Notes under the pieces: model-generated
What the model saw: only the letters and a program-made list of their open reading frames with translations
Database searches by the model: none
What the model was told of the DNA's origin: nothing
Translations under genes and position numbers: made by a program
DNA from: Candidatus Brocadiia bacterium
GTDB taxonomy: Bacteria > Planctomycetota > Brocadiia > CAIUPP01
Direction: 5' to 3'
DNA: 64,000 nucleotides
Assembly: GCA_050015075.1 (NCBI GenBank)
Contig: JBEKCB010000022.1
Coordinates: 1-64,000 of the forward strand
In this document: piece by piece, positions 9,231-63,898 of the stretch
Numbering within the stretch: position 1 is the stretch's first letter
Layout: the number at the start of each line of letters is the position of its first letter

Positions 9231-10189
9231 GCGCGCGAAAGGCTGCGGCCCCCGCAAAGACCGTGAGCCATGCCGAACGGCCCGCCGTGAGCAAGGTCGA
9301 ACGGCTGCTCATCGGCGCGCACATGTCCATCTCCGGCGGCGTCGAACTGGCCCCGCTGCGCGGGCGCGACGTCGGCTGCGCCTGCATCCAGATCTTCACG
9401 AAGAGCAACATGCAGTGGGCCGCGCGGCCGCTGGGCGAAAAGGAGATCGCCGCGTTCAAGCTCAACTGCGCCCAGGCCGGCATCGCCCCGGTCGTCGCGC
9501 ATAACAGCTACCTTATCAACCTCGGCGCGCCGGACACAGCGCCGCTCGCGAAAAAATCGCTCGACTCGTTCCTCCTGGAACTCGAGCGTTGCCGAGCGCT
9601 CGGGCTGCCGGCAATCATCGCGCACCCCGGCTCGCACACGGGCGCCGGCGAGGTTGAAGGACTCCGCCGCATCCGAAGCGCCGTGGACGAACTCCTCGAG
9701 CGCACCTCCGGCTCGCCGGTTCACATCCTGCTCGAGACCACCGCCGGGCAGGGATCGAACCTCGGCTATCGCTTCGAGCAGCTCGCGGAGATGATGGAAG
9801 GCGTCAAGCAAAAGTCGCGCGTCGGCGTCTGCCTCGACACCTGCCACGTCTTCGCCGCCGGGTACGACATCCGGACCGAGGACGGCTATCGCCGCACCCT
9901 GGAGGAGTTCGACAAAATCATCGGCCTGAAAAAGCTCCAGGCGTTCCACCTGAACGACTCGATGGGCGATCTCGGCTCGAAGCTCGACCGCCACGAGCAG
10001 ATCGGCCATGGCCGCCTCGGCCCGGAGCCGTTCCGCCTGCTCCTGCGCGACCCGCGCTTCGCCGCCATCCCCAAAGTCCTCGAGACCCCGAAAGGCAAGC
10101 GCGGCAAGACGGAGTGGGACGTCATCAACCTGCGGCTGCTGCGGCAGCTCAGCGGCAGTGAAACGTGTAAAGCGAAACGCAAACACTGA
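9227..10189 (+). CDS. nfo: Endonuclease IV
   Basis: IGAHMSISGG, HNSYLINL, LLETTAGQGSNLG, CLDTCHVFAAGYD, HLNDS, DRHEQIG, LETP; start codon uncertain. Confidence 0.95.
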   Translation: MSARKAAAPAKTVSHAERPAVSKVERLLIGAHMSISGGVELAPLRGRDVGCACIQIFTKSNMQWAARPLGEKEIAAFKLNCAQAGIAPVVAHNSYLINLGAPDTAPLAKKSLDSFLLELERCRALGLPAIIAHPGSHTGAGEVEGLRRIRSAVDELLERTSGSPVHILLETTAGQGSNLGYRFEQLAEMMEGVKQKSRVGVCLDTCHVFAAGYDIRTEDGYRRTLEEFDKIIGLKKLQAFHLNDSMGDLGSKLDRHEQIGHGRLGPEPFRLLLRDPRFAAIPKVLETPKGKRGKTEWDVINLRLLRQLSGSETCKAKRKH

Positions 10190-10245
10190 AGAAACTGATA
10201 TAATGCTCACGGCTTGGCCCCTCTGATAAAAGCAGGCTTGGTCAC

Positions 10246-11322
10246 ATGAGCCTTCTGGAAGTCAAAGATCTTCGCAAGACGTACGACCGCCGCGAGGTGG
10301 TCAAGGGCGTCACGTTCTCCGTCGAGAAGGGCGAAATCGTCGGGCTCCTCGGGCAGAACGGCGCAGGCAAGACGACCGCCTTCCGCATGACGATCGGGAT
10401 GATCCGTTGCAACAGCGGCCAGGTGATGTTCATGGGCCAGGACGTGAGCCGCCTGCCCATGTACCAGCGCGCCCGCCGCGGGATGGGCTACCTGTCGCAG
10501 GAACCTTCGATCTTCCAGCGGATGAGCGTCGCCGACAACGTGGACGCGGTGCTCGAAACGCTCCGCATCAGCCGCGCCGAACGCAGGAAGCGCCTCGAAC
10601 AACTGCTCGAACAACTCTCCCTGGTCCACCTGCGCAACGCGACCGCGATGACGCTCTCCGGCGGCGAGCGGCGCCGCCTGGAGATCACCCGCGCGCTCGC
10701 GACCGAACCGCGCCTGATCCTCCTCGACGAGCCGTTCAGCGGCGTGGACCCGAAGGTCGTGAACGAGATACAGGAGATCGTCCTCAAACTCCGCGACACC
10801 GGCATCGGCGTGCTGCTCACCGACCACAATGTGCACGACACGCTCAGCGTGACGGACCGCTCGTACATTATCAGCGAGGGCCGCATCGAGGCAAGCGGGA
10901 CTCCCGAGGAACTGCTGGCGAACCCGCGCGCGCGCGATCTTTATTTCGGCGAGCGCCTCCAGATCGAACATATCGTCCGGTCTCGCGACCACGGAAAACC
11001 CGACGACGCGAATTCCGCAATCATGTCCGAGGGCGTGAAGGGTACAGGCACGATCCGAGCCGCGTTGCGGATCTATTACTCGCAGAAAAACACCTACGTC
11101 GGCGCCACGCTTCCCACCGCCTCTGCGCCGGGCACACTGCAGGTGGTTTGGGGCGACTTGCACGGAAAGTACTTCGCCCAGGGCGACTACTCGATAAGCG
11201 ATCTGACCGCTTCGACCTATACGATCAAGGCCGGCCCGCCTTCGCTGACGAAAAGCTCACAGTTGACTTATATCATCAACGAGACAGGCGCGGAGTCCGG
11301 AACGTACATGACCGGTCAGTAA
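10246..11322 (+). CDS. lptB: LPS export ABC ATPase LptB with an unusual ~115 aa C-terminal pilin-like extension
   Basis: GLLGQNGAGKTT, LPMYQRARRGMGYLSQEPSIF, LSGGERRRLEI, LLDEPFSGVDP, LLTDHNV, YFGE; the frame continues past the normal ~240 aa end. Confidence 0.88.
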   Translation: MSLLEVKDLRKTYDRREVVKGVTFSVEKGEIVGLLGQNGAGKTTAFRMTIGMIRCNSGQVMFMGQDVSRLPMYQRARRGMGYLSQEPSIFQRMSVADNVDAVLETLRISRAERRKRLEQLLEQLSLVHLRNATAMTLSGGERRRLEITRALATEPRLILLDEPFSGVDPKVVNEIQEIVLKLRDTGIGVLLTDHNVHDTLSVTDRSYIISEGRIEASGTPEELLANPRARDLYFGERLQIEHIVRSRDHGKPDDANSAIMSEGVKGTGTIRAALRIYYSQKNTYVGATLPTASAPGTLQVVWGDLHGKYFAQGDYSISDLTASTYTIKAGPPSLTKSSQLTYIINETGAESGTYMTGQ

Positions 11323-12568: not shown

Positions 12569-13798
12569 GTGAAAATCCTTCTCATCAACAAGTTCTACTA
12601 TCTCGCGGGCGGCACCGAGCGCTACCTGTTCGAATGGGAGGCGCTGCTCCGGTCGCGCGGGCACGAGGTCATGGTCTTCTCCATGCGCCATCCGGAGAAT
12701 CTTCCCAGCCGGCAGGAGCGTTTCTTCATGGAGCGCGTCCGCTTCGACGCGGACCAGCCGCCCGAGGCGCGGTTGCGCGCGGCGGCGCACTCGATCTGGA
12801 GCCGCGAGGCGGCGGACCGGCTGTCGGAGCTGCTCAAAGCCGAGGGCACGCCCGACATCGCGCACCTGCATTCCTTCATGTACCAGCTCACGCCGGCCAT
12901 CCTCGAGCCGCTGGTCGCGCGCCGCGTGCCGATCGTCCAGACCTGCCACGACTACGCGCACATCTGCGTCAACCAGCACCTGTACAACCATCGCGTGAAC
13001 CGCCTCTGCGAGGAATGCCTTCGCCGCGGGCGGCTGGCGCCGCTCTGGACCCGCTGCATCAAAGGCTCCTTCGCGCAGAGCGCCGCCGGGTGCGCCGCCG
13101 GTTGCGCGGACGCGCTCATCGGCCGCAGCCGCAGCAAGGTCCGGCGATTCCTCACGCCGAGCGATTTCATGCGGCGGAAGGTGATCGAGGGCGGCCTGCC
13201 GGCGCGGCGCGTCTTCCACGAGCGGCACTTCATCCGCCCGGACTGGATCGCGCCTTCGCAATCGCCGGGCGACTACATCCTTTTCATGGGCCGGCTGGTG
13301 CCGCAGAAAGGGCTCGGCACATTCCTCGATGCCGCGGCGCTCGCGCCCGAAGTGCCGTGCAAAGTGGCCGGGACCGGGGCGCTGGAATCGGCCGCGCGGG
13401 CGCGCGTGCGCGAGCAGAATTTCAGCCACGTCGAGATGCTCGGCCACCGCGACGGCCCGCAACTCCTCGAGATCGTGCGCGGCGCGCGCGCCGTGGTGGT
13501 GCCTTCGGAGTGGTACGAACCGTTCTCGCTTGTTATCCTTGAGGCAATGGCGGCGGCGCGGCCGGTGATCGCCTCGCGCATCGCCGGCCCGGCGGAGATT
13601 CTTTCGCACGGCGAGGACGGCCTGCTCGTGCCGCCCGGCGGCGCGGAGGAACTCGCCGCCGCGTTCCGGACGCTCTGGCGCGACCCGGCGCGCGCCGTCG
13701 AGATGGGCCGGCGCGGCCTGGAGAAAACCCGCGTGCTCTACGCGCCGGACGGACATTACCGGCGATTGATGACGCATTTCGAGGAAGTCATGCAATGA
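12569..13798 (+). CDS. Glycosyltransferase family 4
   Basis: MKILLINKFYYLAGGTERY, FMGRLVPQKG, PSEWYEPFSLVILEAMA. Confidence 0.9.
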   Translation: MKILLINKFYYLAGGTERYLFEWEALLRSRGHEVMVFSMRHPENLPSRQERFFMERVRFDADQPPEARLRAAAHSIWSREAADRLSELLKAEGTPDIAHLHSFMYQLTPAILEPLVARRVPIVQTCHDYAHICVNQHLYNHRVNRLCEECLRRGRLAPLWTRCIKGSFAQSAAGCAAGCADALIGRSRSKVRRFLTPSDFMRRKVIEGGLPARRVFHERHFIRPDWIAPSQSPGDYILFMGRLVPQKGLGTFLDAAALAPEVPCKVAGTGALESAARARVREQNFSHVEMLGHRDGPQLLEIVRGARAVVVPSEWYEPFSLVILEAMAAARPVIASRIAGPAEILSHGEDGLLVPPGGAEELAAAFRTLWRDPARAVEMGRRGLEKTRVLYAPDGHYRRLMTHFEEVMQ

Positions 13799-14760
13799 TG
13801 CCCATGGATGCGGTCCTGGCGGTCACCTATCGCTGCAACGCCCGCTGCACGATGTGCGGCATCTGGAGCTCGAACCCGGTCGCCGAACTGCCGCCGGCGG
13901 CTTATGCCCGGCTGCCCTCGAGCCTGCGCGACGTCAACCTCACCGGCGGCGAGCCGTTCCTGCGCGACGACCTGCCCGAAATCCACGCCGCGGTCCGGTC
14001 CGCGTGCCGGCGCGCGCGCACGATCGTCAGCACCAACGGCCTGCTGACCGACCGGATCATCGCTGCGGTGCGGGCGATGGCGAGCGTCGAACCGGGCATC
14101 GGCGTCGCGGTCTCGGTGGACGGCCCGCCGGAAATCCACGACCGCATGCGCGGAGTCCCGGGCGCGTACGAGCGCGCACTGGCCACCGTCCGCGGGCTTC
14201 AGCTGGCCGGGTTCCGAAACCTGCGGCTGGCGTTCACGCTGACGGACGGGAACCCGAACTGCCTGGGGCAGGTCTACGCGCTCGCGCGAGAGCTCGGCGT
14301 CGAGTTCACCTGCGCATTGCAGCACGGCTCCGAGCACTACTTCCGCATGCAAGCACCCCAGGCGCGTTCGATCCAGGCGGAGATCGCGCCGGCCATCCGC
14401 GGCGAGCTGCGTTCTCTCTCGCCGAAGCGATGGGCGCGCGCCTATTTCATGAACGGGCTGTCCCGGTACGCCGCCGGTCGCGGCCGACCGCTCCCGTGTC
14501 AGGCGGGACGCGATTTCTTCTTCATGAGCCCGTCCGGCGACGTCTTTACCTGCAACGGCGAGTCCTTCCGCATGGGCAACCTGAACCGGCAGACCTTCGA
14601 CCAGGTCTGGAAGTCGCTCGAGGCCTCCAACGCGCGGGCGTGCGCCCACTTCTGCCGGGCCGGTTGCTGGATGGTCTGCACGGCGCGAACGGCGGTGCGC
14701 CGCGCCTGGCCGCGAGTGCTGCTCTGGGCGCTCGTCCACTCCGTCGTCGGCGTCCGTTGA
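13795..14760 (+). CDS. Radical SAM/SPASM domain protein
   Basis: CNARCTMC (CxxxCxxC), LTGGEPFLR, C-terminal Cys cluster CQAG...C...CRAGCWMVC. Confidence 0.9.
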   Translation: MMPMDAVLAVTYRCNARCTMCGIWSSNPVAELPPAAYARLPSSLRDVNLTGGEPFLRDDLPEIHAAVRSACRRARTIVSTNGLLTDRIIAAVRAMASVEPGIGVAVSVDGPPEIHDRMRGVPGAYERALATVRGLQLAGFRNLRLAFTLTDGNPNCLGQVYALARELGVEFTCALQHGSEHYFRMQAPQARSIQAEIAPAIRGELRSLSPKRWARAYFMNGLSRYAAGRGRPLPCQAGRDFFFMSPSGDVFTCNGESFRMGNLNRQTFDQVWKSLEASNARACAHFCRAGCWMVCTARTAVRRAWPRVLLWALVHSVVGVR

Positions 14761-14775
14761 AAACCGAATTCGATT

Positions 14776-14807
14776 TCACCGCAGAGGCGCAGAGGACGCG
14801 GAGAACG
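14776..14807. repeat. Left inverted arm flanking GxxExxY
   Basis: TCACCGCAGAGGCGCAGAGGACGCGGAGAACG, complementary to the downstream arms. Confidence 0.85.
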
Positions 14808-14825
14808 ACGAAACAAGGATGACCC

Positions 14826-15203
14826 ATGGAACTGAATCAATTGACCGAGAAGATCATAGGCGCGGCGATTGAGGTGCACCGGACGCTTGGGCCGGGGCTG
14901 ATGGAGTCGGCCTATGCAGAATGCCTCTGCCGGGAACTGTCGCTTCAGGGAATCCCGTTTGAGCGTGAAAAAGCGCTGCCGGTCGAATACAAGGGCGTCA
15001 GGCTCGATTGCGGCTACAGGCTCGACCTGCTTGTCGCCGGTTCTGTGGTCGTTGAACTCAAGGCGGTTGAAGAATTACTGCCAATCCACGAAGCCCAATT
15101 GCTGACCTACTTGCGCCTCGGCGGCTGGAAGGTCGGCCTGCTCATCAATTTCAACGTCCCGGTCTTGACGAAGGGCGTGAAACGCATGGTCAATAACTTG
15201 TGA
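14826..15203 (+). CDS. GxxExxY protein (PD-(D/E)XK nuclease-like fold)
   Basis: [54 protein letters not shown]. Confidence 0.95.
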
Positions 15204-15207
15204 CTTA

Positions 15208-15324
15208 TAGAAATCCGTTCTCTGCGTTCTCTGTGTCTCTGCGGTGAGCCTTTAACTGAAGGCGTCTAGAAATCCGTTCTCTGCGTTCTCTGTGTCTCTG
15301 CGGTGAGCCTTTAACTGAAGGCGT
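15208..15324. repeat. Tandem 58-bp identical duplication containing the right inverted arm of the GxxExxY element
   Basis: TAGAAATCCGTTCTCTGCGTTCTCTGTGTCTCTGCGGTGAGCCTTTAACTGAAGGCGT at 15208 and again at 15267. Confidence 0.92.
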
Positions 15325-15330
15325 AGAGCG

Positions 15331-16476
15331 TTGAGAATCGCGATGCTCGGGCTCAAGGGAATCCCGGCCACGTTCGGCGGCGTCGAGCGGCACGTCGAGG
15401 AACTTTCGGCGCGGCTCGCCGGGCGCGGTCACGAGGTCACGGTCTATTGCCGTCGGAACTACACGCCGGGCGGCTCGCTTCATCGCGGCGTGCGGCTGAG
15501 GATTCTGCCGAGCATCCCGACGAAGCATCTCGACGCTTTCTCGCACACCGCCCTGGCGGCGGCCGACATCGCCGCGCGGCCGTTCGACGTCGTCCATTTC
15601 CATTCCGCCGGCCCGGCGCTGCTTTCGTTCCTGCCGCGGATCGCCTCGCGCCGGCCGTGCGCGGTCGTCGCGACCGTTCACGCGATGGACTGGCGCCGCC
15701 GCAAATGGGGCCCGCTCGCGCGCTGGTGCCTGCGGCGCGGCGCGTGGGCTGCCGTCACGTTCCCGCAGCGGACGATCGTCGTGTCGCGGCGGATGCAGGA
15801 TTATTTCGCCCGGCGCGGGAAGCGCGTTGTTCATATTCCGAACGGCGTCGAAGCGCCCTGCCCCGCGCCGCTCGCGGAGTTGCGAGGGCAGGGCATCGAG
15901 AAGGACCGCTACGTCCTGTGGATGGGCCGTTTCGTGCCGGAGAAGCGCGTCGAGGACTTGATCGCCGCGTTCCGGCCGCTGGGCGGCGAGACGAAGCTGC
16001 TCCTCGCGGGCGAAGTGGACGAAGCCGATCCGTATTTCCAATCGCTGCGCGCGGCCGCGGGCGGCGACCCGCGGATCATTTTCCCGGGTGGCCTTTACGG
16101 CCGCGCGAAAGCCGAAGCGCTGACGAACGCCGCGCTCGTCGCGCTGACTTCCGACCTCGAAGGATTCCCCATCGCGCTGCTCGAAGGCATGCGCTACGGC
16201 CGCCCGGTCCTCGCCAGCGACATTCCCGAGAACCTGGAGGCGCTCTGGCCGCAGGTGAACGGCTACGCCTTCCGGACGGGCGACCCGGCTTCGCTCCACG
16301 AGCGCATGGCCTGGATTCTGGCGCATCCGGCCGAGGCGGCCTCAGCCGCCCGGCGGGCCGAGCAGGATTCGCAGCAATATGACTGGGACGTGATCGCCGG
16401 CCAAGTGGAGTCCGTCTATCGCGGCGCGCTCAGAGCGACGCGGAACGACGAACGCGGACCAGCTTCGTCATACTGA
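15331..16476 (+). CDS. Glycosyltransferase family 4
   Basis: RIAMLGLKGIPATFGGVERHVEEL, MGRFVPEKR, SDLEGFPIALLEGM, ASDIPEN. Confidence 0.9.
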   Translation: MRIAMLGLKGIPATFGGVERHVEELSARLAGRGHEVTVYCRRNYTPGGSLHRGVRLRILPSIPTKHLDAFSHTALAAADIAARPFDVVHFHSAGPALLSFLPRIASRRPCAVVATVHAMDWRRRKWGPLARWCLRRGAWAAVTFPQRTIVVSRRMQDYFARRGKRVVHIPNGVEAPCPAPLAELRGQGIEKDRYVLWMGRFVPEKRVEDLIAAFRPLGGETKLLLAGEVDEADPYFQSLRAAAGGDPRIIFPGGLYGRAKAEALTNAALVALTSDLEGFPIALLEGMRYGRPVLASDIPENLEALWPQVNGYAFRTGDPASLHERMAWILAHPAEAASAARRAEQDSQQYDWDVIAGQVESVYRGALRATRNDERGPASSY

Positions 16477-16663
16477 GCGCAGCCCATCTTCCGTGAACAC
16501 AGGACCGAACGGCGCAGCCTCTTAGCCGCAACGAGGGATAAGTCGCGGGTCGCCGGCAGCGCAGTATCGAGCCGTGAATGCTCGGCGATCCGGCGAGCCA
16601 ACAGCGGTCCAATGTGCAAGGGAATAACGGGTATCGAGTCCCAGCGATACGCCTCACGGTAAA

Positions 16664-16987
16664 TTATTCAGTTCTGCGCAACCAAAGATATTGATGAGCC
16701 CGAAAAATTATGTAGTAGAGCGCCAAGAGAAAGCGCCAGCCGGTCAGACTACTACCGCACTCAAAGACAATATGGTCGCCCTGCAGCGACTCGAAATCAA
16801 TCTGCCCGCTGCTACACCAATCAATCCGAAGCACAAGAGAGTGCCTCCCTGGTGAAATGGGAATCGTGACAGATTTACGGGCCCGAACTGAACCAACAAC
16901 CACACCGTCAACTTTGATTTTGTAAGCTCGCAGACGGTCGCCGTAGCTCGTCGTCCGTCGAACCGTGATGTGTGTTTGCTCGCTCAT
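16664..16987 (-). CDS. Hypothetical small protein in an AT-rich islet
   Basis: 107 aa ORF (DRLRAYKIKVDG...PGRHSLVLRIDWCSS) with a hydrophobic C-terminus; low GC. Confidence 0.7.
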   Translation of the reverse strand: MSEQTHITVRRTTSYGDRLRAYKIKVDGVVVGSVRARKSVTIPISPGRHSLVLRIDWCSSGQIDFESLQGDHIVFECGSSLTGWRFLLALYYIIFRAHQYLWLRRTE

Positions 16988-17301
16988 AATTTCGATGATG
17001 CCCGATAGCCGCCTAACTTCTTATTCTACACAGAACAATTGCTGGAGTTCCGGTGAGCCATAAGTAACCGGGATTTCTCATTTGACGGTCTCTCAGGGTA
17101 CGGTCCGCATTCGAACATAAGATTCTACCCTCAAAGTGCCCGCTGCCAAGTGGTTTCTCGCATGCTCTGCAATGCCGTTGTTCTGTATGAAGATACGCCC
17201 ACGCGCGCCTCTCGCCCTTCTGATTGGGGCGGGAATCTGGAGCGGTTCGCCTAAGGACCTAGTTGGCCAACCATCATGCGAGTTATATCCGGGAGGCCGC
17301 C

Positions 17302-33232: not shown

Positions 33233-33841
33233 ATGTTCAAGCTCATGCTGGTCACGGATCGCCGGCGTTCGAAGCGGCCGCTGGCGGAGACGGTGCGAAT
33301 GGCGCTGGCGGGCGGCGTGGACGCGGTGCAGTTGCGGGAGCGCGATCTCAGTGCGCGCGAGCTCTACGACCTGGCGTTGAAGCTCCGCGCGATCACGCGC
33401 GCGGCGGGCGCGGCGCTGATCGTCAACCAGCGGCTCGACGTGGCGCTCGCCGCCGGCGCGGACGGCGTGCACCTCGGCTGGCGGTCCCTGAACCCGGCGG
33501 CCGTGCGCAAACTCGCCGGCGAGAAATTCCTGATCGGCCTCTCCTGTCACGACGGGCCGCAGCTTCATTCCGCCGAAGAATCCCGCGCGAACTACGCGCT
33601 GCTCGGACCGGTGTTTCACACGCCGTCGAAGGAAGGGCTGGTGTACCCGATCGGCCTCGGGCCTCTGAAGGACATGGTCTCCGCCGCGAAGATCCCCATC
33701 CTCGCCATCGGCGGCGTTACGCCGGAGAACGCCGCGCAGGTGATGGAGACCGGCGTCGCCGGCCTCGCCGTAATCTCCGCGCTGATTGACCCCGAAGACC
33801 CCGCCGCCGCCGCGCGCGCCTTCCGAAAGGAGTGCGAATGA
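33233..33841 (+). CDS. thiE: Thiamine-phosphate synthase
   Basis: LMLVTDR, VQLRERD, ADGVHLG, GPVFHTPSK, AIGGVTPEN. Confidence 0.88.
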   Translation: MFKLMLVTDRRRSKRPLAETVRMALAGGVDAVQLRERDLSARELYDLALKLRAITRAAGAALIVNQRLDVALAAGADGVHLGWRSLNPAAVRKLAGEKFLIGLSCHDGPQLHSAEESRANYALLGPVFHTPSKEGLVYPIGLGPLKDMVSAAKIPILAIGGVTPENAAQVMETGVAGLAVISALIDPEDPAAAARAFRKECE

Positions 33842-33888
33842 TGAATCTTGAGTGATGAAGCGCTTCATCACTCATCCTTCATACTTCT
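33837..33888. repeat. TGAGTGATG-family palindrome between convergent genes (possible bidirectional terminator)
   Basis: Perfect core TGAGTGATGAAGC/GCTTCATCACTCA (33849-33874) with heptamer-periodic flanks. Confidence 0.75.
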
Positions 33889-33895
33889 TACTTCC

Positions 33896-34878: not shown

Positions 34879-34970
34879 TCGTCCTCGTCCTCGAACGCGC
34901 CCTCCTCGTCGTCATCGGCCTCGGCCAATCGAGACGTTCGTTCGAGGACGAGGACGACGACGAGGACGAT
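34879..34970. repeat. (TCGTCC)n/(GGACGA)n hexamer-arm palindrome
   Basis: TCGTCCTCGTCCTCGAACG ... CGTTCGAGGACGAGGACGACGACGAGGACGA. Confidence 0.8.
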
Positions 34971-37431: not shown

Positions 37432-38138
37432 CGGCGGACCGCGGCGCCAGTCCCAGGCCGGCCTACGCGACCCGCGCGACGGCGCTGCATTGGGCCGCCG
37501 GCGCGATCGCCAAGTGGGTGCTCTTTCCCTATTACCTGACCGTCCGCATCGTGGAAGGCGGCGAGCTCCGGACCAAAATGCTGCGCCACCCTCGGCCGGC
37601 CGGCATCTATGCCTTCTGGCATTCGCACCAGCTCTCGGCGGTGTGGCATTTCCGCCGGGTCGCCGCCGGGATCCTGATCAGCGCGTCGAAAGACGGAGAA
37701 TACATCGCGCGCATCGCGCGGTCGGTCGGCTTCGTGCCGCTGCGCGGATCGTCCTCGCGGCTCGGCGCTCCGGGGCTCAAAGCGCTCATCGAGCTCGCGC
37801 GCAGCGGCCGGACGGTGGCGATCACGCCCGACGGCCCGCGCGGCCCGAGGTATTCCATCGGCCCGGGCGTCCTTGCCCTGGCGCAGAAGAGCGGCTATCC
37901 GATCGTCCCGTTCGCCATCGGCCTTTCGAGCTTCTGGGAATTGCCGAGCTGGGACCGGTTCCGAATCCCGAAACCGTTCTCCCGCGGCTATGCCTGCTGG
38001 GGCGAGCCGCTTTCGGTCCCGCCCGACGCGGATGACGCGGCGCTGGACCAGCTCGCCGCCGAACTTCGCCGCCGGATGATTGACCTCGAGCAATTCGCGG
38101 ACCGCATGGCCCGAACCCAGGGCTGGCGAAACGGCTGA
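37428..38138 (+). CDS. DUF374 / lysophospholipid acyltransferase family protein
   Basis: AFWHS, LISASKDGEYIA, RGSSSR, ITPDGPRGP, SWDRFRIPKPFS. Confidence 0.88.
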   Translation: MTADRGASPRPAYATRATALHWAAGAIAKWVLFPYYLTVRIVEGGELRTKMLRHPRPAGIYAFWHSHQLSAVWHFRRVAAGILISASKDGEYIARIARSVGFVPLRGSSSRLGAPGLKALIELARSGRTVAITPDGPRGPRYSIGPGVLALAQKSGYPIVPFAIGLSSFWELPSWDRFRIPKPFSRGYACWGEPLSVPPDADDAALDQLAAELRRRMIDLEQFADRMARTQGWRNG

Positions 38139-38139
38139 A

Positions 38140-38382
38140 CGTTTTTGCCACGGATTGCACGGATTTGCACGGATTACCGGCGACGAACTGAATACGACGA
38201 ACGTTCTTGCCACGGATTTCACGGATTCACACGGATTACCGGCGACAAACTGAACCGCTGAAGAATAGTCTTCGCCTTTGCCTCCGGTAATCCGTGGCCA
38301 TCCGTGAAATCCGTGGCAAAAATCCGTTTTGCCTTTTTGTCTTTAATCCGCGGTCATTCGTGCAATCCGCGGCAAGAACGTT
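38140..38382. repeat. Doubly nested palindrome of 9-nt-period CACGGAT arms (L1-L2-R2-R1)
   Basis: Two left arms GCCACGGATT(G/T)CACGGATT..CACGGATTACCGG and two right arms AATCCGTGGCCATCCGTGAAATCCGTGGC and AATCCGCGGTCATTCGTGCAATCCGCGGC. Confidence 0.88.
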
Positions 38383-38421: not shown

Positions 38422-39135
38422 ATGCTGATCATCCCCGCCATTGACCTGAAAGACGGCTGCGCCGTGCGCCTGGTGCGCGGCGAGGCGGCCCAGGCGACGG
38501 TCTTCTCCAACGATCCGGTCGAGGTCGCGCTCCGCTGGCGCAGCGAGGGCGCGGAGTACCTGCACGTCGTGGACCTCGACGGCGCGTTCGAGGGTGAGCC
38601 GGTCCAGTTCGGCATGGCTGTCCAGATCGCGCGCGAGAGCGGCCTGCCGGCCGAGGTCGGCGGCGGCATCCGCACGCGCGACACGGTGCTGCGCTACCTG
38701 AACGCGGGGCTGGACCGCGTGGTCATCGGCACGCGCGCGCTCGAGTCGCCCGAGTGGCTGGCGAAGCTGTGCGAGGAATTCCCCGGCCGCATCGCCGCCG
38801 GAGTGGACGCGCGCGGCGGCCGCGTCGCCGTCCGCGGCTGGGTGGAGACCTCCGAACTCACCGCCCTCGAACTCGCCCGCCGGCTGAGCGGCATCCCGTT
38901 GCGCGCCGTGATCTTCACCGACATCTCGGCGGACGGAACGATGGCCGGCCCGGCCATCGAGAGCACCCGCGCCTTCGCCGAAATGATCCGGCTGCCGGTG
39001 ATCGCCTCCGGCGGCGTCGGCAGCATCGAGCATTTGCGGCAGATCGCGCGCCTGCCGGTCGAGGCCGCCATCGTCGGCCGCGCGCTCTACACCGGCGCGG
39101 TGTCGCTGCCCGATGCCATCGCGGCCGCGCGCTGA
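38422..39135 (+). CDS. hisA: ProFAR isomerase
   Basis: IIPAIDLKDGCAVRL, LHVVDLDGA, EVGGGIR, FTDISADGTMAGP, IASGGV. Confidence 0.96.
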   Translation: MLIIPAIDLKDGCAVRLVRGEAAQATVFSNDPVEVALRWRSEGAEYLHVVDLDGAFEGEPVQFGMAVQIARESGLPAEVGGGIRTRDTVLRYLNAGLDRVVIGTRALESPEWLAKLCEEFPGRIAAGVDARGGRVAVRGWVETSELTALELARRLSGIPLRAVIFTDISADGTMAGPAIESTRAFAEMIRLPVIASGGVGSIEHLRQIARLPVEAAIVGRALYTGAVSLPDAIAAAR

Positions 39136-39149
39136 AGGAGTTTTGTGAA

Positions 39150-39228
39150 TCGTCCTCGTCGTCGTCCTCGGCCTCGTCCTCGGTCGTTCAAAACGGCCGT
39201 TCGAGGCCGAGGACGACGACGAGGACGA
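39150..39228. repeat. (TCGTCC)n/(GGACGA)n palindrome with perfect 27-bp arms
   Basis: TCGTCCTCGTCGTCGTCCTCGGCCTCG (39150-39176) / CGAGGCCGAGGACGACGACGAGGACGA (39202-39228). Confidence 0.88.
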
Positions 39229-39262
39229 GTACGATGAAAGTTCAGCCCTCGGACCATAACGC

Positions 39263-40966
39263 ATGAACTCATCCCGCCTGATCGTCCTCACGCTCGCCCT
39301 CTGCATCCTGACGGGCATTTGGGGCTACTGCCACGAGTGCTCGCGCGAGCCGGACGACACCGGCGACGAAAGCGCGTATCTTTCCGAATCCGCATGGATC
39401 GCCGAGCACGGCGGAATTTTCGGCTACCTCCGGCTCTGCGCTCAGGGACGCTATCAGCGGACGGGGACTTACCCGCTGCTGGCCGTCGCCGCTGCTCCGT
39501 TCGCGTCGCGCGACCTTGCCTTCATCCGCCCGGCCCGGCTGTTCAAGAGCGCCCTGACGGCGCTGGCGTTGATCGGCATTTTCCTTGTCACCGGACGATT
39601 GACGTCCTGGGACCACGGCGCATGGCTGATCGCCATGATCGCGCTCTCGCGGAACTGGCTCGGGAAGGCCGGCGTCTTCACGATTGACCCGATCATCTAC
39701 GCGCTCATTTTCCTGGCCTGGCTGCTGATCGCCGGCTTGTGGCGGCCGAAGGGCCGGTGGCTCTGGGCCGGCGCGGCGTTCGGGCTGGCCTGGATGGCCA
39801 AGGGAACCGCCCTGCTGCTCCTGGCGGGGCTGATCGGCGCGGTCGCGTGGCGGCTGGCATTCGGGCGCGACCGTCTTCGCCTGCTGACTTCGGCCCGCTT
39901 CTGGATGGCGGGCGTCCTGTTCGCGGCCGGCATGGCCGTCACCGCCGCCCCGCTGCTCATGCAGACCACGCTCGCCGCGCGCTCCGAAAGCGCCCTGACG
40001 CGCTACCTGCCGCCGGGGCTGTGGCTGGACAGTTGGAGCCAGCGGCTGGAGACCAATCCGGAGCGCGCCACGCAGGGGATGAGCGGCTATCTCCAGAGGC
40101 ACGGCCTGGCGGGCGCGGCTGAGCGCCTGGTCCAGGGCATGGCCGACCAGGCGCCGCGGTTCGTCGGCGTCTTCGCGATAGACAAGGAAGCGCCGAAGGC
40201 GCTCTGGGTGCTGACGCTGATCTGCTCGGCCGGCCTCTTCGCGCTGGCCGTCCGCGGGATGGTCCGCGAGCGCGACTCGTGGGCGCGGTCATACACGGTC
40301 CTGTTCGTCCTCGCGGGGTTCCTGCTTTACTCCTGGTTCTCCGCCATCACCTATGCCTCGCGCTTCGCCGCGACGTTCGGGCCGGTATTTGCATGGTACG
40401 CAGCGGCGGAGATTTCGCCGCTATTGCGCCGACTGGCCGAACGCCTTTGGGCGGCGCGGCCTGAATTGCGCGAGGCCGTCCCCAGGCGCGTCGTCGCGGG
40501 GATCATCGCCCTGCTGATTCTCTGCCTGGTCATCAGCAACGGGAAACGCCTGCCCGCCGATCCGCGCGAGCCGCTGCCGCTGAAGCCGGACTACGCGAAG
40601 CTCATGAACTGGTACGATCAAAACGTAGCGCGCACCGGCGCGGTCTGCGTCCACACGATGGACCTGGGCTGGCGATTCCGCTTCCTCTGGCTGCTGCCCC
40701 CGTCGCAAGCAATTGAAATGCCCATGGCACCGGACTTCGCCGCCTTCATGGCCTGGGCGGACAAAGCCGAAGCGGAATATCTCCTGCTCGCGCGCCCCGC
40801 GCCCGAATACGCCGACTTCCTCAAGCCGCCCCTGGGCGACTTCATCTGCAACGACCCCGCCGCCGGCCTGATCCAGAGCGCCCCAATTCCCGGCTGGCGC
40901 CTCGTTCTCGAAGACCGCGATGGCGTCTGCGACTACCTCGTCTACCGCCGCCAGCGAACGCGTTGA
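39263..40966 (+). CDS. ArnT/PMT-like (GT-C) membrane glycosyltransferase
   Basis: DESAY loop motif, YPLL, AGAAFGLAWMAKG, many TM helices. Confidence 0.7.
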   Translation: MNSSRLIVLTLALCILTGIWGYCHECSREPDDTGDESAYLSESAWIAEHGGIFGYLRLCAQGRYQRTGTYPLLAVAAAPFASRDLAFIRPARLFKSALTALALIGIFLVTGRLTSWDHGAWLIAMIALSRNWLGKAGVFTIDPIIYALIFLAWLLIAGLWRPKGRWLWAGAAFGLAWMAKGTALLLLAGLIGAVAWRLAFGRDRLRLLTSARFWMAGVLFAAGMAVTAAPLLMQTTLAARSESALTRYLPPGLWLDSWSQRLETNPERATQGMSGYLQRHGLAGAAERLVQGMADQAPRFVGVFAIDKEAPKALWVLTLICSAGLFALAVRGMVRERDSWARSYTVLFVLAGFLLYSWFSAITYASRFAATFGPVFAWYAAAEISPLLRRLAERLWAARPELREAVPRRVVAGIIALLILCLVISNGKRLPADPREPLPLKPDYAKLMNWYDQNVARTGAVCVHTMDLGWRFRFLWLLPPSQAIEMPMAPDFAAFMAWADKAEAEYLLLARPAPEYADFLKPPLGDFICNDPAAGLIQSAPIPGWRLVLEDRDGVCDYLVYRRQRTR

Positions 40967-47970: not shown

Positions 47971-48995
47971 TTAAAGAGGCGATCCGCAGGCTGACCGAAC
48001 GGCGCGACCTGACCTCCGAAGAGTGCGCGCAGGCGATGAACGAGGTGATGAGCGGCGAGGCGACGCCGGCGCAGGTCGCGGCCTTCATCGTCGCGCTGCG
48101 CATGAAGGGCGAGACGCCGGAGGAGATCGCCGGCTGCGCCCGCGTGATGCGCGCGAAGGCGCGCCGCATCGAGGCCGGCGCCGAGGTCGTGCTCGATACC
48201 TGCGGCACCGGCGGCGATGCGCGGAACACGTTCAACATCTCCACCGCGGCGGCGTTCGTCGCGGCCGGCGCGGGCGCGACCGTGGCCAAGCACGGCAACC
48301 GCGCCGTCAGCTCGCACAGCGGCTCGGCGGACGTCCTCCGGCAACTCGGCGTGAACATCGAAGCCGGGCCCGACGTGGTCGAGCGCTGCCTGCGCGAGGT
48401 CCGGATCGGGTTCCTCTACGCGCCGATGCTCCACGAGGCGATGAAGTTCGCCATCGGCCCGCGGCGCGAGATCGGCATCCGCACCGTCTTCAACCTGCTC
48501 GGTCCGCTGACCAACCCCGCCGGCGCGCGCCACCAGCTCATCGGCGTGTACGACCCCGCCCTGCCGCCGGTCCTCGCCGCGGTGCTCAAGACCCTCGGCA
48601 GCGAGCGATGCCTCGTCGTCCACGGCGACGACGGCCTCGACGAAATCACGACGACGGGCAAAACGCTCGTGGCGGAGCTGAAGGACGGCGAGGTGACGAC
48701 GCGCGAATGGGCGCCGGAGCAGTTCGGCTTGCCGCGCGCGAAGCTCTCGGACCTGGTCGTCCGGAGCGTTGAAGAGGCCGCCGAGGCGGTCCGCTCCGTC
48801 TTGAAGGGCGAGCGCGGCCCCCGGCGCGACATCGTCGCGCTGAACGCCGGGGCGGCGATCATGGTGGCCGGTCTCGCCGACGACCTTCCCTCGGGCATCC
48901 GCCGCGCGGAGCAGGCGATGGACACCGGCGCTGCGGAGCGCGCCTTGAAGGAACTGATCCGCATTACGAACGGGAGTCCGAACGGCGAGCGATGA
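47967..48995 (+). CDS. trpD: Anthranilate phosphoribosyltransferase
   Basis: DTCGTGGD..TFNIST, AKHGNRAVSSHSGSADVL, RTVFNLLGPLTNP, GLDEI. Confidence 0.96.
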   Translation: MIKEAIRRLTERRDLTSEECAQAMNEVMSGEATPAQVAAFIVALRMKGETPEEIAGCARVMRAKARRIEAGAEVVLDTCGTGGDARNTFNISTAAAFVAAGAGATVAKHGNRAVSSHSGSADVLRQLGVNIEAGPDVVERCLREVRIGFLYAPMLHEAMKFAIGPRREIGIRTVFNLLGPLTNPAGARHQLIGVYDPALPPVLAAVLKTLGSERCLVVHGDDGLDEITTTGKTLVAELKDGEVTTREWAPEQFGLPRAKLSDLVVRSVEEAAEAVRSVLKGERGPRRDIVALNAGAAIMVAGLADDLPSGIRRAEQAMDTGAAERALKELIRITNGSPNGER

Positions 48996-49024
48996 GTGAT
49001 GGAATACTCCATCACTCATCGCTC
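48987..49024. terminator. Perfect 17-bp hairpin (TGAGTGATG family) between convergent genes
   Basis: GAGCGATGAGTGATGGA-ATAC-TCCATCACTCATCGCTC, overlapping the trpD stop. Confidence 0.7.
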
Positions 49025-49044
49025 CCACTTCCTCGTCTCCAGCG

Positions 49045-61253: not shown

Positions 61254-62492
61254 ATGCCGACCTTTCGATTCGAGGCCATGAACTCGCAGGGCCAGACGAT
61301 CAAGAACGAGGTGGACGCCACATCCGAGGAAGAGGCGATTCAGAAGATCCGCGCGCAGAAGCTCTTCCCCACCAGCGTCAAGGCCAAGGTCGGCCGGCGC
61401 GGCCTGACGACCGGCGCGGGCAGAAAACGCAAGAAGAGCTTCGCCATCGGCGGCGTGAGCGCCAAGCAGCTCACGCTCTTCACCCGCCAGCTCTCCACGC
61501 TGCAGGACGCCGGACTTCCCATCGTCCGCAGCCTCAAAATCCTCGAGGGCCAGCTCAAGCCCGGCGTGTTGAAGAACACGCTCATCACCGTGACCGACGA
61601 CGTCGAAGGCGGCATGACCTTCAGTGAGGCCCTCGCCAAGCACCCCAAGGCGTTCGACAAGCTCTACACCAACATGGTCCGCGCCGGCGAGGTCGGCGGC
61701 GTCCTCGACGAAATTCTCCAGCGCCTCGCCGACTTCCGCGAGAAGGCCCGCCGCCTCAAGAAGCAGATCGTCGGCGCGATGGTTTACCCGATCGCCGTCA
61801 TCACCGTCGCCGGCGGCATCCTCTGGGGCATCATGACCTTCATCGTCCCCAAGTTCAAACAAATCTTCGTCGAGCTCGATGTCCAGTTGCCCACGATGAC
61901 GCTGATGCTCATCTCGTTCTCCGACTTCATCAAGAACAGTTGGTACTGGATCCCGACCGGCATCATCGGCTTCATCCTCCTCGTCAAGGGCGTCGGCGCC
62001 ACCAACCTGGGGCGCTACATCCTGGACAAGATCAAGCTGCGCATACCCTTGTTCGGCAGCATCCTCAACAAGGCCGTGATCGCGCGCTTCACCCGCACGC
62101 TCGGCACCCTCGTCGCCTCCGGCGTGCCCATCCTCGAAGCGCTGAACATCACCAAGGACACCGCCGGAAACATGGTCATCTCCAGGGCCATCGGCCACGT
62201 GCATGACAGCATTCGTGAGGGCGAAAGCATCGCCGAGCCGCTCGCCCAGAGCAAGATCTGCGACGACATGGTGGTCAACATGGTGGACGTCGGCGAGGAG
62301 ACCGGCGACCTCGACAAGATGCTTCTGAAGATCGCCGACCAGTATGACGAAGACGTGGACCTGGCCGTCGCCGGCCTGGCGCACTTGATCGAGCCGATCA
62401 TGATCGTCGTCCTCGGCGGCTGCGTCGGCTTCATTGTGATCTCGCTGTTCCTGCCCTTGATCAAGCTCATGAACAGCTTGGGCGGATCGTAA
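61254..62492 (+). CDS. pilC: Type IV pilus/T2SS platform protein (PilC/GspF)
   Basis: FTRQLSTLQDAGLPI, AGEVGG.L, AMVYP, GEETGDLD.ML, IEP. Confidence 0.93.
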   Translation: MPTFRFEAMNSQGQTIKNEVDATSEEEAIQKIRAQKLFPTSVKAKVGRRGLTTGAGRKRKKSFAIGGVSAKQLTLFTRQLSTLQDAGLPIVRSLKILEGQLKPGVLKNTLITVTDDVEGGMTFSEALAKHPKAFDKLYTNMVRAGEVGGVLDEILQRLADFREKARRLKKQIVGAMVYPIAVITVAGGILWGIMTFIVPKFKQIFVELDVQLPTMTLMLISFSDFIKNSWYWIPTGIIGFILLVKGVGATNLGRYILDKIKLRIPLFGSILNKAVIARFTRTLGTLVASGVPILEALNITKDTAGNMVISRAIGHVHDSIREGESIAEPLAQSKICDDMVVNMVDVGEETGDLDKMLLKIADQYDEDVDLAVAGLAHLIEPIMIVVLGGCVGFIVISLFLPLIKLMNSLGGS

Positions 62493-62494
62493 GC

Positions 62495-62668
62495 GAGTGC
62501 GGAGTGCGGAGTGTTGAGTGCGGAGTTCGCGAGCGGATGAGCGGATTGCCGCGGTCGTCTGATTACTGCTCACAAAGCCAGGAGGCGCTACCCGTGCCAA
62601 GCCAAAGAAATGGTTATTCTGTACTCCGCACTCTATACTCCGCACTCCGCACTCCGCGCTCCGCACTC
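62495..62668. repeat. 7-nt-period GAGTGCG/CGCACTC palindrome enclosing the prepilin RBS and start
   Basis: Left arm 62495-62526 pairs with right arm 62623-62654 (32 bp, 1 G-U pair, 1 mismatch); extra heptamers extend to 62668. Confidence 0.88.
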
Positions 62669-63898
62669 TGCGCTCGCGCGTTCACGCTCGTCGAGATGCT
62701 GACGGTCATCGCCATCATCGGCATCCTTGCCGCAATCCTCATCACCGCCGTGCCGACCGTCATGCGGAACGCGCGCATCGCCACCGCCAAAGCCGACATC
62801 AGTCATCTCTACCAGGCGGCGACGTCCTACCAGTTGGACTTCGGCGCCTTCCCGCCGGACTGCACCGCCTTCTGGACGAACGGACAAGTGCAGCAACCGG
62901 ACTGCCCGTTCCCCGGAGTTTGGAACAACCAGTCCGCCCCGTACAACGCCTCGCTCAGCCCGAACGAGTTGCTGATGTGGTACTTGACGATGCAGTACAG
63001 CACCGGGCAGCTTAACCCCGTTACGAACAGTTATCCGGCCTCGGGTTACCCGGCCGGTTACCCGGCCGACCCAACCCTGCAGGGAAACTGGCCGGGTAGC
63101 CCTTCCAGCCCTTCCGCCGCCACCGTTGTGTTCTCGCACGGCGTCAACGCCGGCCCCTACTACGACATGAAGGCGAAGCAGAAAACCGATGTCAACGCGA
63201 ACGGCTTCTGGGAGTTCATGGATCCGTGGGGCCGGCCGTACATGTACCGCGCCTATCCGCAGTTTGCCCAGGTCATAGGCGCCACCCCGCCTCCGAATTC
63301 GGCCCCCTACACGGTCATCCTGACGCTTGGCAACCTTGCTGGTCCCAGCCCTTACGGGCCCGAGGTCGGCACCGTTTGCAACACCTACACCTACTACGGC
63401 GGCTACAACTTTTACGCGAACTCGCCCCTGGCCGGCACGACCGGTTCCATCCAGCTCACCGGTTTCAGCAATCCCCTCTACAACGGCACCTTCGCGTTCC
63501 AGGGCGTGCCATACAATCAGGGCACGAACCCGAACAATAATCAGGTCGTTTTGACGTTCGCGGCGAATCCGGGGCCCGCCGGCACGCCCGGCTACTACAG
63601 CTTCCCGCTCCACAACAAGCAGACCTGCGACATCTATAGTCTGGGTCCCTACGGACTCACCCGCGCCGCTTCTTCAATGCCGAATGCCAATAACGCGCCC
63701 CAGGAGTGGAAGCCCACACACGGCGGCACTTCGGTCGCGGCCGACATGGCCCTCAAGAACTCGTCGCTCGACGCCACTTCGCTGGACGCATGGGCCCAGG
63801 TCTGGGGCACGCCCGGCGACGGAAACGATATTAACGTGACCAGCGGCAACATCATCGTCAACGTCCAGTACCAGGACAATATCTGTAACTGGAATTGA
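62594..63898 (+). CDS. Large prepilin/pseudopilin (type IV N-terminal methylation motif)
   Basis: RAFTLVEMLTVIAIIGILAAIL, DPWGRPYMY, HN...DIYSLGP; GTG start 8 nt after GGAGG. Confidence 0.88.
   Translation: MPSQRNGYSVLRTLYSALRTPRSALCARAFTLVEMLTVIAIIGILAAILITAVPTVMRNARIATAKADISHLYQAATSYQLDFGAFPPDCTAFWTNGQVQQPDCPFPGVWNNQSAPYNASLSPNELLMWYLTMQYSTGQLNPVTNSYPASGYPAGYPADPTLQGNWPGSPSSPSAATVVFSHGVNAGPYYDMKAKQKTDVNANGFWEFMDPWGRPYMYRAYPQFAQVIGATPPPNSAPYTVILTLGNLAGPSPYGPEVGTVCNTYTYYGGYNFYANSPLAGTTGSIQLTGFSNPLYNGTFAFQGVPYNQGTNPNNNQVVLTFAANPGPAGTPGYYSFPLHNKQTCDIYSLGPYGLTRAASSMPNANNAPQEWKPTHGGTSVAADMALKNSSLDATSLDAWAQVWGTPGDGNDINVTSGNIIVNVQYQDNICNWN

Follow-up and report, generated by a model that had tools for sequence, protein, structure and literature searches.

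A GxxExxY nuclease gene between long pairing arms in a Candidatus Brocadiia operon looks like a member of a widespread, barely described family of selfish cassettes

In a 64-kb stretch of DNA from a Candidatus Brocadiia bacterium (the window; all coordinates are on its + strand), a small gene of the GxxExxY family, whose product is a predicted PD-(D/E)XK nuclease, stands between two genes of a glycan operon and is enclosed by two long, mutually complementary arms. Below, homologous loci from other genomes carry L-numbers and database proteins carry P-numbers. The unit and its host genes comprise the following features:

13795-14760, + strand: upstream host gene, radical SAM/SPASM, by profile match
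14776-14807, + strand: left arm, purine-rich and periodic, TCACC followed by CGCAGAG, CGCAGAG and CGCGGAG with spacers of 1-2 nt
14815-14819, + strand: Shine-Dalgarno-like AAGGA, read from the sequence, 6 nt 5' of the ATG and within the 18-nt gap between arm and open reading frame (ORF)
14826-15203, + strand: GxxExxY gene, 125 aa, PD-(D/E)XK fold, by profile matches and the motif G24-x-x-E27-x-x-Y30 with D67, E77 and K79
15208-15324, + strand: exact tandem duplication of 59 nt (2.0 copies, 100% match), containing the right arm with 8 nt of inner and 19 nt of outer flank
15216-15247, + strand: right arm, copy 1, pyrimidine-rich, ending in CTCTGCGGTGA, pairing with the left arm over 32 nt
15275-15306, + strand: right arm, copy 2, identical to copy 1, by inverted-repeat search
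15331-16476, + strand: downstream host gene, GT4 glycosyltransferase, starting 24 nt past the second right arm

The left arm starts 15 nt past the stop codon of the radical-SAM gene, upstream of which lie two more glycosyltransferase genes. The arms at 14776-14807 and 15216-15247 are 32 nt each, 408 nt apart and 88% complementary, with 28 Watson-Crick pairs and four G:T mismatches. In every mismatch the G is in the left arm and the T in the right, so that a + strand RNA would form the helix without an unpaired position. When the RNA of 14761-15330 (570 nt) was folded, it gave -229.7 kcal/mol (z=-4.0) with the full 32-bp stem; in the minimum-free-energy fold the left arm paired with the distal right arm copy (15275-15306) at all 32 positions. 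The antisense strand folded more weakly (-198.6 kcal/mol, z=-3.0). The arm motif was found three times in the window, each time in the arms, against an expected 0.39, and none of 100 shuffles reached three. The unit has a GC content of 0.55-0.57 in a region of about 0.70, and its ORF a third-position GC content of 0.73 against 0.85-0.90 in the neighbouring genes. With only 18 nt from the left arm to the ATG, no space for a promoter is left between arm and ORF, and scans of 14600-15450 found neither a sigma-70-like promoter nor a terminator (GC-rich hairpin plus T-run). Profile scanning of the 44 other ORFs in the window revealed no transposase family and no second PF13366 member, and an Rfam search of the whole window matched no family. 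The orthologous locus L001 carries the same left arm sequence and lacks the 59-nt duplication, which is therefore recent. A previous sequence-only reading of this stretch had described the 32-nt arms, the four G-opposite-T differences, the position of the gene between two glycan genes and the lack of a transposase, and all four statements were borne out.

The product of ORF 14826-15203 matched PF13366 (PDDEXK_3; E=1.2e-44, 151.8 bits, cut-off 22), the sole family found in the profile scan, and TIGR04256 (GxxExxY; 157.8 bits, cut-off 35). Across 68 diverse sequences G24, E27 and D67 were invariant, and Y30, E77 and K79 were kept in at least 90%. An AlphaFold2 model built from the alignment of these 68 sequences gave an alpha-beta fold with a predicted local distance difference test score (pLDDT) of 95.8; an earlier model from a 14-sequence alignment (pLDDT 58) was dropped. 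Neither the profile scan nor the model showed a DNA-binding domain beyond the nuclease fold. A sequence search of the PDB gave no match at E<=1, and a fold search with the model returned generic PD-(D/E)XK proteins only (Cas4, Hjc, lambda exonuclease; E of about 5e-3 and above, none at or below 0.001), matches that appear to offer no specific functional lead. The protein matched none of the 5027 defence models in PADLOC. Where it treats GxxExxY, a 2012 survey of the PD-(D/E)XK superfamily gives the function as unknown (PMC3424549).

Protein searches at E<=0.001 yielded at least 8000 scored relatives, and the family comprised 23,885 clusters at 50% identity; relatives at about 75-80% identity were named from Chloroflexi, Acidobacteria, Lentisphaerae and Acetothermia. 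All five long relatives checked contain two PF13366 domains, and in the three two-domain proteins that were read (P0121, P0122 and P0123) the second domain lacks the D...ExK residues, a pattern that would fit a dimeric enzyme. The C-terminal ends of P0122 and P0123 look like translated arm sequence. Likewise, seven of 16 family proteins read (P0019, P0024, P0028, P0032, P0040, P0042 and P0118) have short N- or C-terminal extensions, for example ...NSAPSAPLR and ...RRDAENTEGAQRE, which appear to be translated arms and probably stem from miscalled starts or stops.

A scan of species-representative genomes gave at least 600 matching stretches, 584 of which were confirmed, and the best 80 loci were kept with their flanks. 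These loci come from many bacterial phyla and from archaea (Methanothrix, Methanophagales). For each locus we aligned the 150 nt 5' of the gene to the reverse complement of the 200 nt 3' of it, with control positions taken from within each locus at a distance of 1.5 kb or more. An arm score of at least 24 was reached at 71 of the 80 loci and at 13 of 390 control positions, and a score of at least 30 at 58 loci and two control positions. The score threshold was also passed by six of eight additional members from a plasmid collection, and arms were seen in RefSeq isolates of Bacteroides, Bernardetia, Sphingomonas and Gemmatirosa. Stems of standard order (n=64) had a median of 29 aligned pairs, 89% of them Watson-Crick, and 57 of the 64 had at least 22 pairs. 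The cassette family is very large and extends through many bacterial phyla and archaea, and the arms travel with the gene.

For the arm design we aligned 32 units, namely the window and 31 of the 34 compact standard-order loci with a score of at least 30 (L001 was excluded as a near-copy of the window, L009 and L037 for their length). The consensus left arm was TTCACC-ACAGAG-N-CACAGAG-NN-CACAGAG, with the right arm as its complement, so that the shared plan is a TTCACC end followed by three CRCRGAG-type units. In the 31-pair structure 90.1% of the 955 cells were paired, and sliding the partners by 1-3 columns left only 34-63% paired. Cells in which both sides had changed and still paired numbered 76, compared with 35.4±7.0 in shuffles, none of 500 of which reached 76. 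Several columns split cleanly into A-U and G-C pairs, as in column 22/567 with 17 AU, 14 GC and no unpaired cell. Complementarity of the arms is therefore kept by compensatory changes; the sequence-only reading had proposed covariation and the enrichment of arms around GxxExxY genes as checks, and both were found.

The units themselves are conserved in another way. The C, C, A and G positions within a unit (C.C..AG) are nearly fixed, and the purine at unit position 2 (A or G) is uniform over all three units in 30 of the 32 elements. This A/G type switches at least six times on the gene tree, which is poorly resolved (two of 29 inner branches starred), and both types occur within the same phyla. 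Such a concerted state needs a process of arm exchange or copying, not independent point mutation under selection for pairing. Further unit dialects were CACGGAG (around the GxxExxY gene in L036, L039 and L058), CACTGAG, CGCAAAG and CACCAAG, with one dialect tending to be used by all arms of a locus. Next to the gene, L035, L074, L005 and L009 have one or two extra arms of like type; in L035 (9767-9958) three left arms follow one another at a spacing of about 84 nt. Tandem duplications of an arm with its outer flank also recur (59 nt x2 at 15208-15324 and 62 nt x1.9 at 38137-38254 in the window; 65 nt x10 at 3033-3681 in L059), which suggests slippage or an abortive process at the arms.

Placement of the units was assessed with neighbours from a simple gene caller, both of which lay within 400 nt in 47 loci. 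Relative to the GxxExxY gene, the upstream and downstream neighbours were ++ in 40 of these loci, -+ in four, +- in three and -- in none; counted separately, 54 of 60 upstream neighbours and 53 of 57 downstream neighbours were co-directional. In the 40 co-directional loci the median distance was 9.5 nt from the upstream stop to the arm and 12.5 nt from the arm to the downstream start. The units thus occupy, in sense orientation, short gaps between pairs of genes that run in the same direction. The six RefSeq examples with annotation in the plasmid collection all have this placement, among them Bacteroides finegoldii (radA, unit, gene for a FAD protein) and Sphingomonas parapaucimobilis (fabD, unit, fabG, acpP, fabF). 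The start codon of the nuclease gene lay 0-12 nt past the last purine-rich unit in 16 of 29 aligned units and farther away in ten, with three starts miscalled; in three aligned units besides these no start was found. Because the start codon follows so closely in compact copies, the ribosome-binding purines there fall in the arm. The lack of promoter space, the sense orientation and the position at operon junctions make read-through the simplest mode of transcription, and a read-through transcript holds both arms.

At least one pair of orthologous junctions, one occupied and one empty, was found. Between fabD and fabG, S. parapaucimobilis carries a unit of 437 nt running from TTCACG... to ...CGTGAA, whereas Sphingomonas paeninsulae has about 32 nt and no hairpin; the fabD-fabG gap of Rhizobium indigoferae is 30 nt. 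Gene GC was below flank GC in 73 of 78 loci (slope 0.59). Two loci from Rhodocyclaceae, L064 and L073, have proteins 81% identical at different junctions. In L070, from a metagenome-assembled genome (MAG) of Burkholderiales, and in L073, from a Rhodocyclaceae MAG, a cassette at about 9970-10410 follows homologous putative trpE genes, assigned from their sequence; the cassette proteins are 66% identical and the upstream genes 71%. The common site reflects either an ancient insertion passed on vertically or a preference for this position.

The arms also occur without the gene and with other contents. Among the 80 loci, 24 contained 37 gene-less hairpins with the arm motif, 26 of them within 600 nt of the gene, and shuffles gave none. 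The same arms enclose a YhcG/DUF1016 gene of the PD-(D/E)XK class in L003 (5711-6889), a second GxxExxY gene in L073, and gene fragments (pseudogenes) in L028 and L020. For a 154-aa ORF inside arms, similarity to Mrr-type endonucleases came solely from language-model features and serves only as a lead. Four-helix-bundle (S23p-like) genes outside rRNA may have similar periodic arms; among the 80 loci, none was enclosed by arms. Some copies of the cassette, in L003 and L006, belong to defence-like islands. The gene-less arm hairpin at 9357-9436 of L003 falls within the long open frame of a DUF1156 gene (L003 6939-9968; L006 at the same position) and may be an in-frame hairpin insertion; the DUF1156 defence-like island is common to a Planctomycetota MAG and a Desulfatibacillum MAG.

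Three cassettes have a Y1_Tnp (IS200-like) gene no more than 10 kb away: L003 4852-5549 (21.5 bits, below the cut-off), L020 1329-1982 (27.8 bits) and L073 17448-18263 (38.6 bits). Each of the three carries its own non-periodic inverted repeats of 18-26 nt, 92-100% complementary, and resembles a unit of a REP-associated tyrosine transposase (RAYT) with its repetitive extragenic palindromes (REPs). These genes were considered as drivers of the periodic arms and rejected, as their REP-like repeats differ. A NOV_C-domain gene that is continuous in L004 and L006 seems to be split by the RAYT-like unit in L003.

The window contains no gene-less hairpin with the cassette's own arm motif. It does contain gene-less hairpins of other types, two of which are:

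38138-38382, no strand assigned: gene-less nested hairpin with periodic arms of unit CACGGATT, left arm first, by repeat searches
62493-62677, no strand assigned: gene-less hairpin with 7-nt periodic arms (GAGTGCG / ACTCCGC), directly after a T2SS-F gene that ends at 62492

The left arm of the first is tandemly duplicated (62 nt), and arms of the CACGGATT type enclose a GxxExxY gene in Treponema saccharophilum; this hairpin is a possible relative of the arm family, with no sequence match to the arms at 14776. The second has a cassette-like architecture with a different repeat unit, and its right arm overlaps the start of ORF 62504-63898, where either the true start lies later or the arm is partly translated. 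Two more hairpins, at 39146-39244 (between genes ending at 39135 and starting at 39263) and 34879-34969, consist of TCGTCC / GAGGACGA units with the pyrimidine arm first and sit in tight co-directional junctions, and those at 33831-33892 and 48980-49031, with GATGAGTGATG-like units, sit at convergent gene ends. There are several hairpin dialects in this genome. The sequence-only reading had taken such gene-less palindromes for empty relatives of the cassette; this fits the same-motif hairpins of 24 loci, and the window's own hairpins turned out to be built of other repeat units, of which CACGGATT is the one shared with the Treponema arms. Separately, GC dips to 0.50-0.57 at 16450-16990, right after the GT4 gene, where a minus-strand ORF (16664-16987, 107 aa) has no Pfam match.

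Based on these results, we lean, with modest confidence, towards a promoter-less, horizontally spreading nuclease cassette that is insulated by its stem within the operon's read-through transcript. The cassette would be transcribed only through read-through of the host operon. In the RNA, pairing of the arms would give a helix of about 30 bp, with the cassette as its loop and the host stop and start codons side by side again. A helix of 32 bp is long enough for RNase III, and by analogy with the ORF-bearing intervening sequences (IVS) of 23S rRNA the stem would be an RNase III-type substrate. In compact copies the helix would also hide the ribosome-binding purines of the nuclease gene and so keep nuclease levels low. 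More tentatively, the arms might double as the DNA ends for spread: the predicted nuclease or another PD-(D/E)XK cargo might cut the arms in hairpin or cruciform form, or else empty hairpins, after which repair might copy the gene in, with the gene-less hairpins as empty or decayed forms.

Several observations weigh against this picture. The sequence-only reading expected a G-U bias across loci, and this did not hold: mismatches in 63 standard stems (L001 excluded) comprised 73 sense-strand G:U, 54 A:C and 107 others (binomial p=0.11), and per locus G:U exceeded A:C in 26, A:C exceeded G:U in 12 and the two tied in 26. Three of the window's four G:U mismatches are common to its orthologue L001, and the family as a whole does not show the four-out-of-four pattern. 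A helix under strong selection as RNA should have a clearer preference for G:U, so the lack of a general excess weakens the case for a helix selected as RNA; it leaves the evidence for maintained pairing untouched. The nearly fixed unit bases point to a sequence-specific reader, for which pairing alone would be insufficient, and the concerted switching of units points to copying or exchange at the DNA level. Nine of the 80 loci fell below the arm score (L017, L026, L028, L041, L045, L053, L059, L062 and L064), eight of which, all except L045, keep at least one arm-like motif nearby. In seven loci (L034, L038, L044, L050, L051, L074 and L075) the arm order is reversed, so that the pyrimidine-type arm precedes the gene and the purine-type arm follows it; four of these have, as their upstream arm, the 3' half of an entire hairpin or unit lying upstream. 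No target-site duplication was detected, the 53 loci compared being distributed as shuffled pairings. Eight matches were found in 72,556 plasmid records, all non-mobilizable, and none in 50,697 phage records, an uncommon pattern for a mobile gene. An empty site had been predicted at the radical SAM-GT4 junction; it exists for fabD-fabG in Sphingomonas and was not found for the window's own junction, for which the sole relative found (L001) carries the unit. Finally, we infer both RNase III cutting and read-through, the former from the rRNA parallel. The earlier interpretation as a mobile or processing system is thus partly supported.

Much of this would suit a purely DNA-level element, in which the arms are the terminal inverted repeats (TIRs) of a minimal transposon-like unit, the nuclease is its mobility enzyme, the gene-less hairpins resemble miniature inverted-repeat transposable elements (MITEs) or REP doublet hairpins (REPINs), and the RNA stem is a by-product. 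TTCACC...GGTGAA ends conserved across phyla, clean insertion relative to a hairpin-less empty junction, gene-less copies, fixed unit bases with concerted unit types, G:U not favoured over A:C and the recurrent arm-plus-flank tandem duplications are all in line with it, and the RAYT genes with their own REP-like repeats in L003, L020 and L073 show that such a layout exists. We nevertheless think it rather unlikely, given that DNA insertion alone does not lead one to expect a 40-to-0 sense orientation in operon junctions, that there is no target-site duplication, that the 125-aa protein shows a nuclease fold and no extra DNA-binding domain, and that the gene is rare on plasmids and absent from phages. 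A further alternative assigns the arms to the site: the hairpins would be host REP-like elements of operon junctions, serving mRNA stability or processing, and the nuclease gene a passenger in their loops. The empty junction of S. paeninsulae has no hairpin, the gene is found with the same arm ends in different phyla, archaea included, and the window is without a gene-less hairpin of the cassette motif, all of which makes this improbable, although gene-less periodic hairpins do occupy equally tight junctions of the window (39146-39244 and 62493-62677), arm type is decoupled from the gene tree, the arms of one locus have a local dialect in common, and hairpin-gene-hairpin layouts occur in L044, L050 and Gemmatirosa.

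The nuclease might instead be domesticated and immobile, acting for example in defence or repair, with the stem as a cis control of translation or stability. The conserved catalytic residues in 68 diverse sequences are compatible with this, as are the copies in the defence-like islands of L003 and L006 and the shared putative trpE junction in two betaproteobacterial orders, where protein identity (66%) is close to that of the neighbour (71%). Given zero matches to 5027 defence models, deviant GC in 73 of 78 loci, near-identical proteins in unrelated phyla and at unrelated junctions, and pseudogene fragments within arms (L028, L020), we hold it to be very improbable. That the stem is a chance palindrome or an ordinary intrinsic terminator has a negligible chance of being right and is already refuted by the controls: it has the intergenic position alone to recommend it, against the motif shuffles, the arm controls, the compensatory-change statistics, the lack of a T-run terminator and a same-strand gene that starts 24 nt downstream.

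The nearest described objects to the insulated cassette favoured here are the ORF-bearing IVS of 23S rRNA in Leptospira, Coxiella and others. The Coxiella IVS, an S23p ORF within a stem, is removed by RNase III. Its GC content is unlike that of the genome, heptamers are repeated in tandem beside the ORF in varying number, and a mobile origin has long been proposed (PMC4990558). In both systems a small ORF is looped out by a long stem of terminal inverted repeats, within a highly transcribed unit and without a promoter of its own, with short tandem repeats of variable copy number beside the ORF, a patchy, horizontal-looking distribution and deviant GC. They differ in that the cassette sits between protein genes of an mRNA operon and not in rRNA, and in that its cargo is a predicted PD-(D/E)XK nuclease, whereas that of the IVS is the four-helix-bundle S23p. 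An Rfam search of the 14 shortest of the 80 loci matched no family.

At the DNA level the nearest analogue is REP/REPIN with RAYT, where one gene likewise lies within inverted, hairpin-forming repeats. REP-like repeats also occur gene-less in the same genomes, and same-motif gene-less hairpins were seen in 24 of the 80 cassette loci and not in the 64-kb window. In REP/RAYT, however, the enzyme is an HUH Y1 transposase and not a PD-(D/E)XK nuclease, and the cassette arms are internally periodic and of another sequence family. MITEs and small TIR transposons share terminal inverted repeats and short gene-less derivatives, whereas the cassette has no target-site duplication or recognisable transposase and is strictly sense within operons. 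Integron attC cassettes also combine a promoter-less ORF, imperfect palindromes and transcription from outside, and the attC palindrome is thought to work as a folded single strand; in the present case the arms flank the ORF on both sides and pair with each other, and copies are scattered in operons with no integrase array. More speculatively, GxxExxY cassettes, other PD-(D/E)XK cargo, gene-less periodic hairpins and ORF-bearing 23S IVS could together form one undescribed, pan-prokaryotic selfish class, which would fold out of RNA and spread when a structure-specific nuclease cuts periodic or empty hairpins and repair copies the gene in, much as in REPIN/RAYT, with the repeat units as the recognition code. 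We regard this wider unification as possible and rather doubtful.

A full-text search, which left subscription journals and database family descriptions outside its scope, found no publication linking the GxxExxY family to flanking repeats. Taken together, the results make the GxxExxY unit look like a selfish gene cassette that is widespread and has hardly been described. The arms also flag an annotation artefact, since arm sequence appears to have been translated into the ends of family proteins. If the favoured reading is true, it would account for the presence of this gene in the middle of a housekeeping operon (fabD-fabG) and beside trpE, would provide larger and more tractable relatives for the question of what the 23S rRNA IVS are, and would supply a model from nature for adding a gene to an operon while causing little polar effect.

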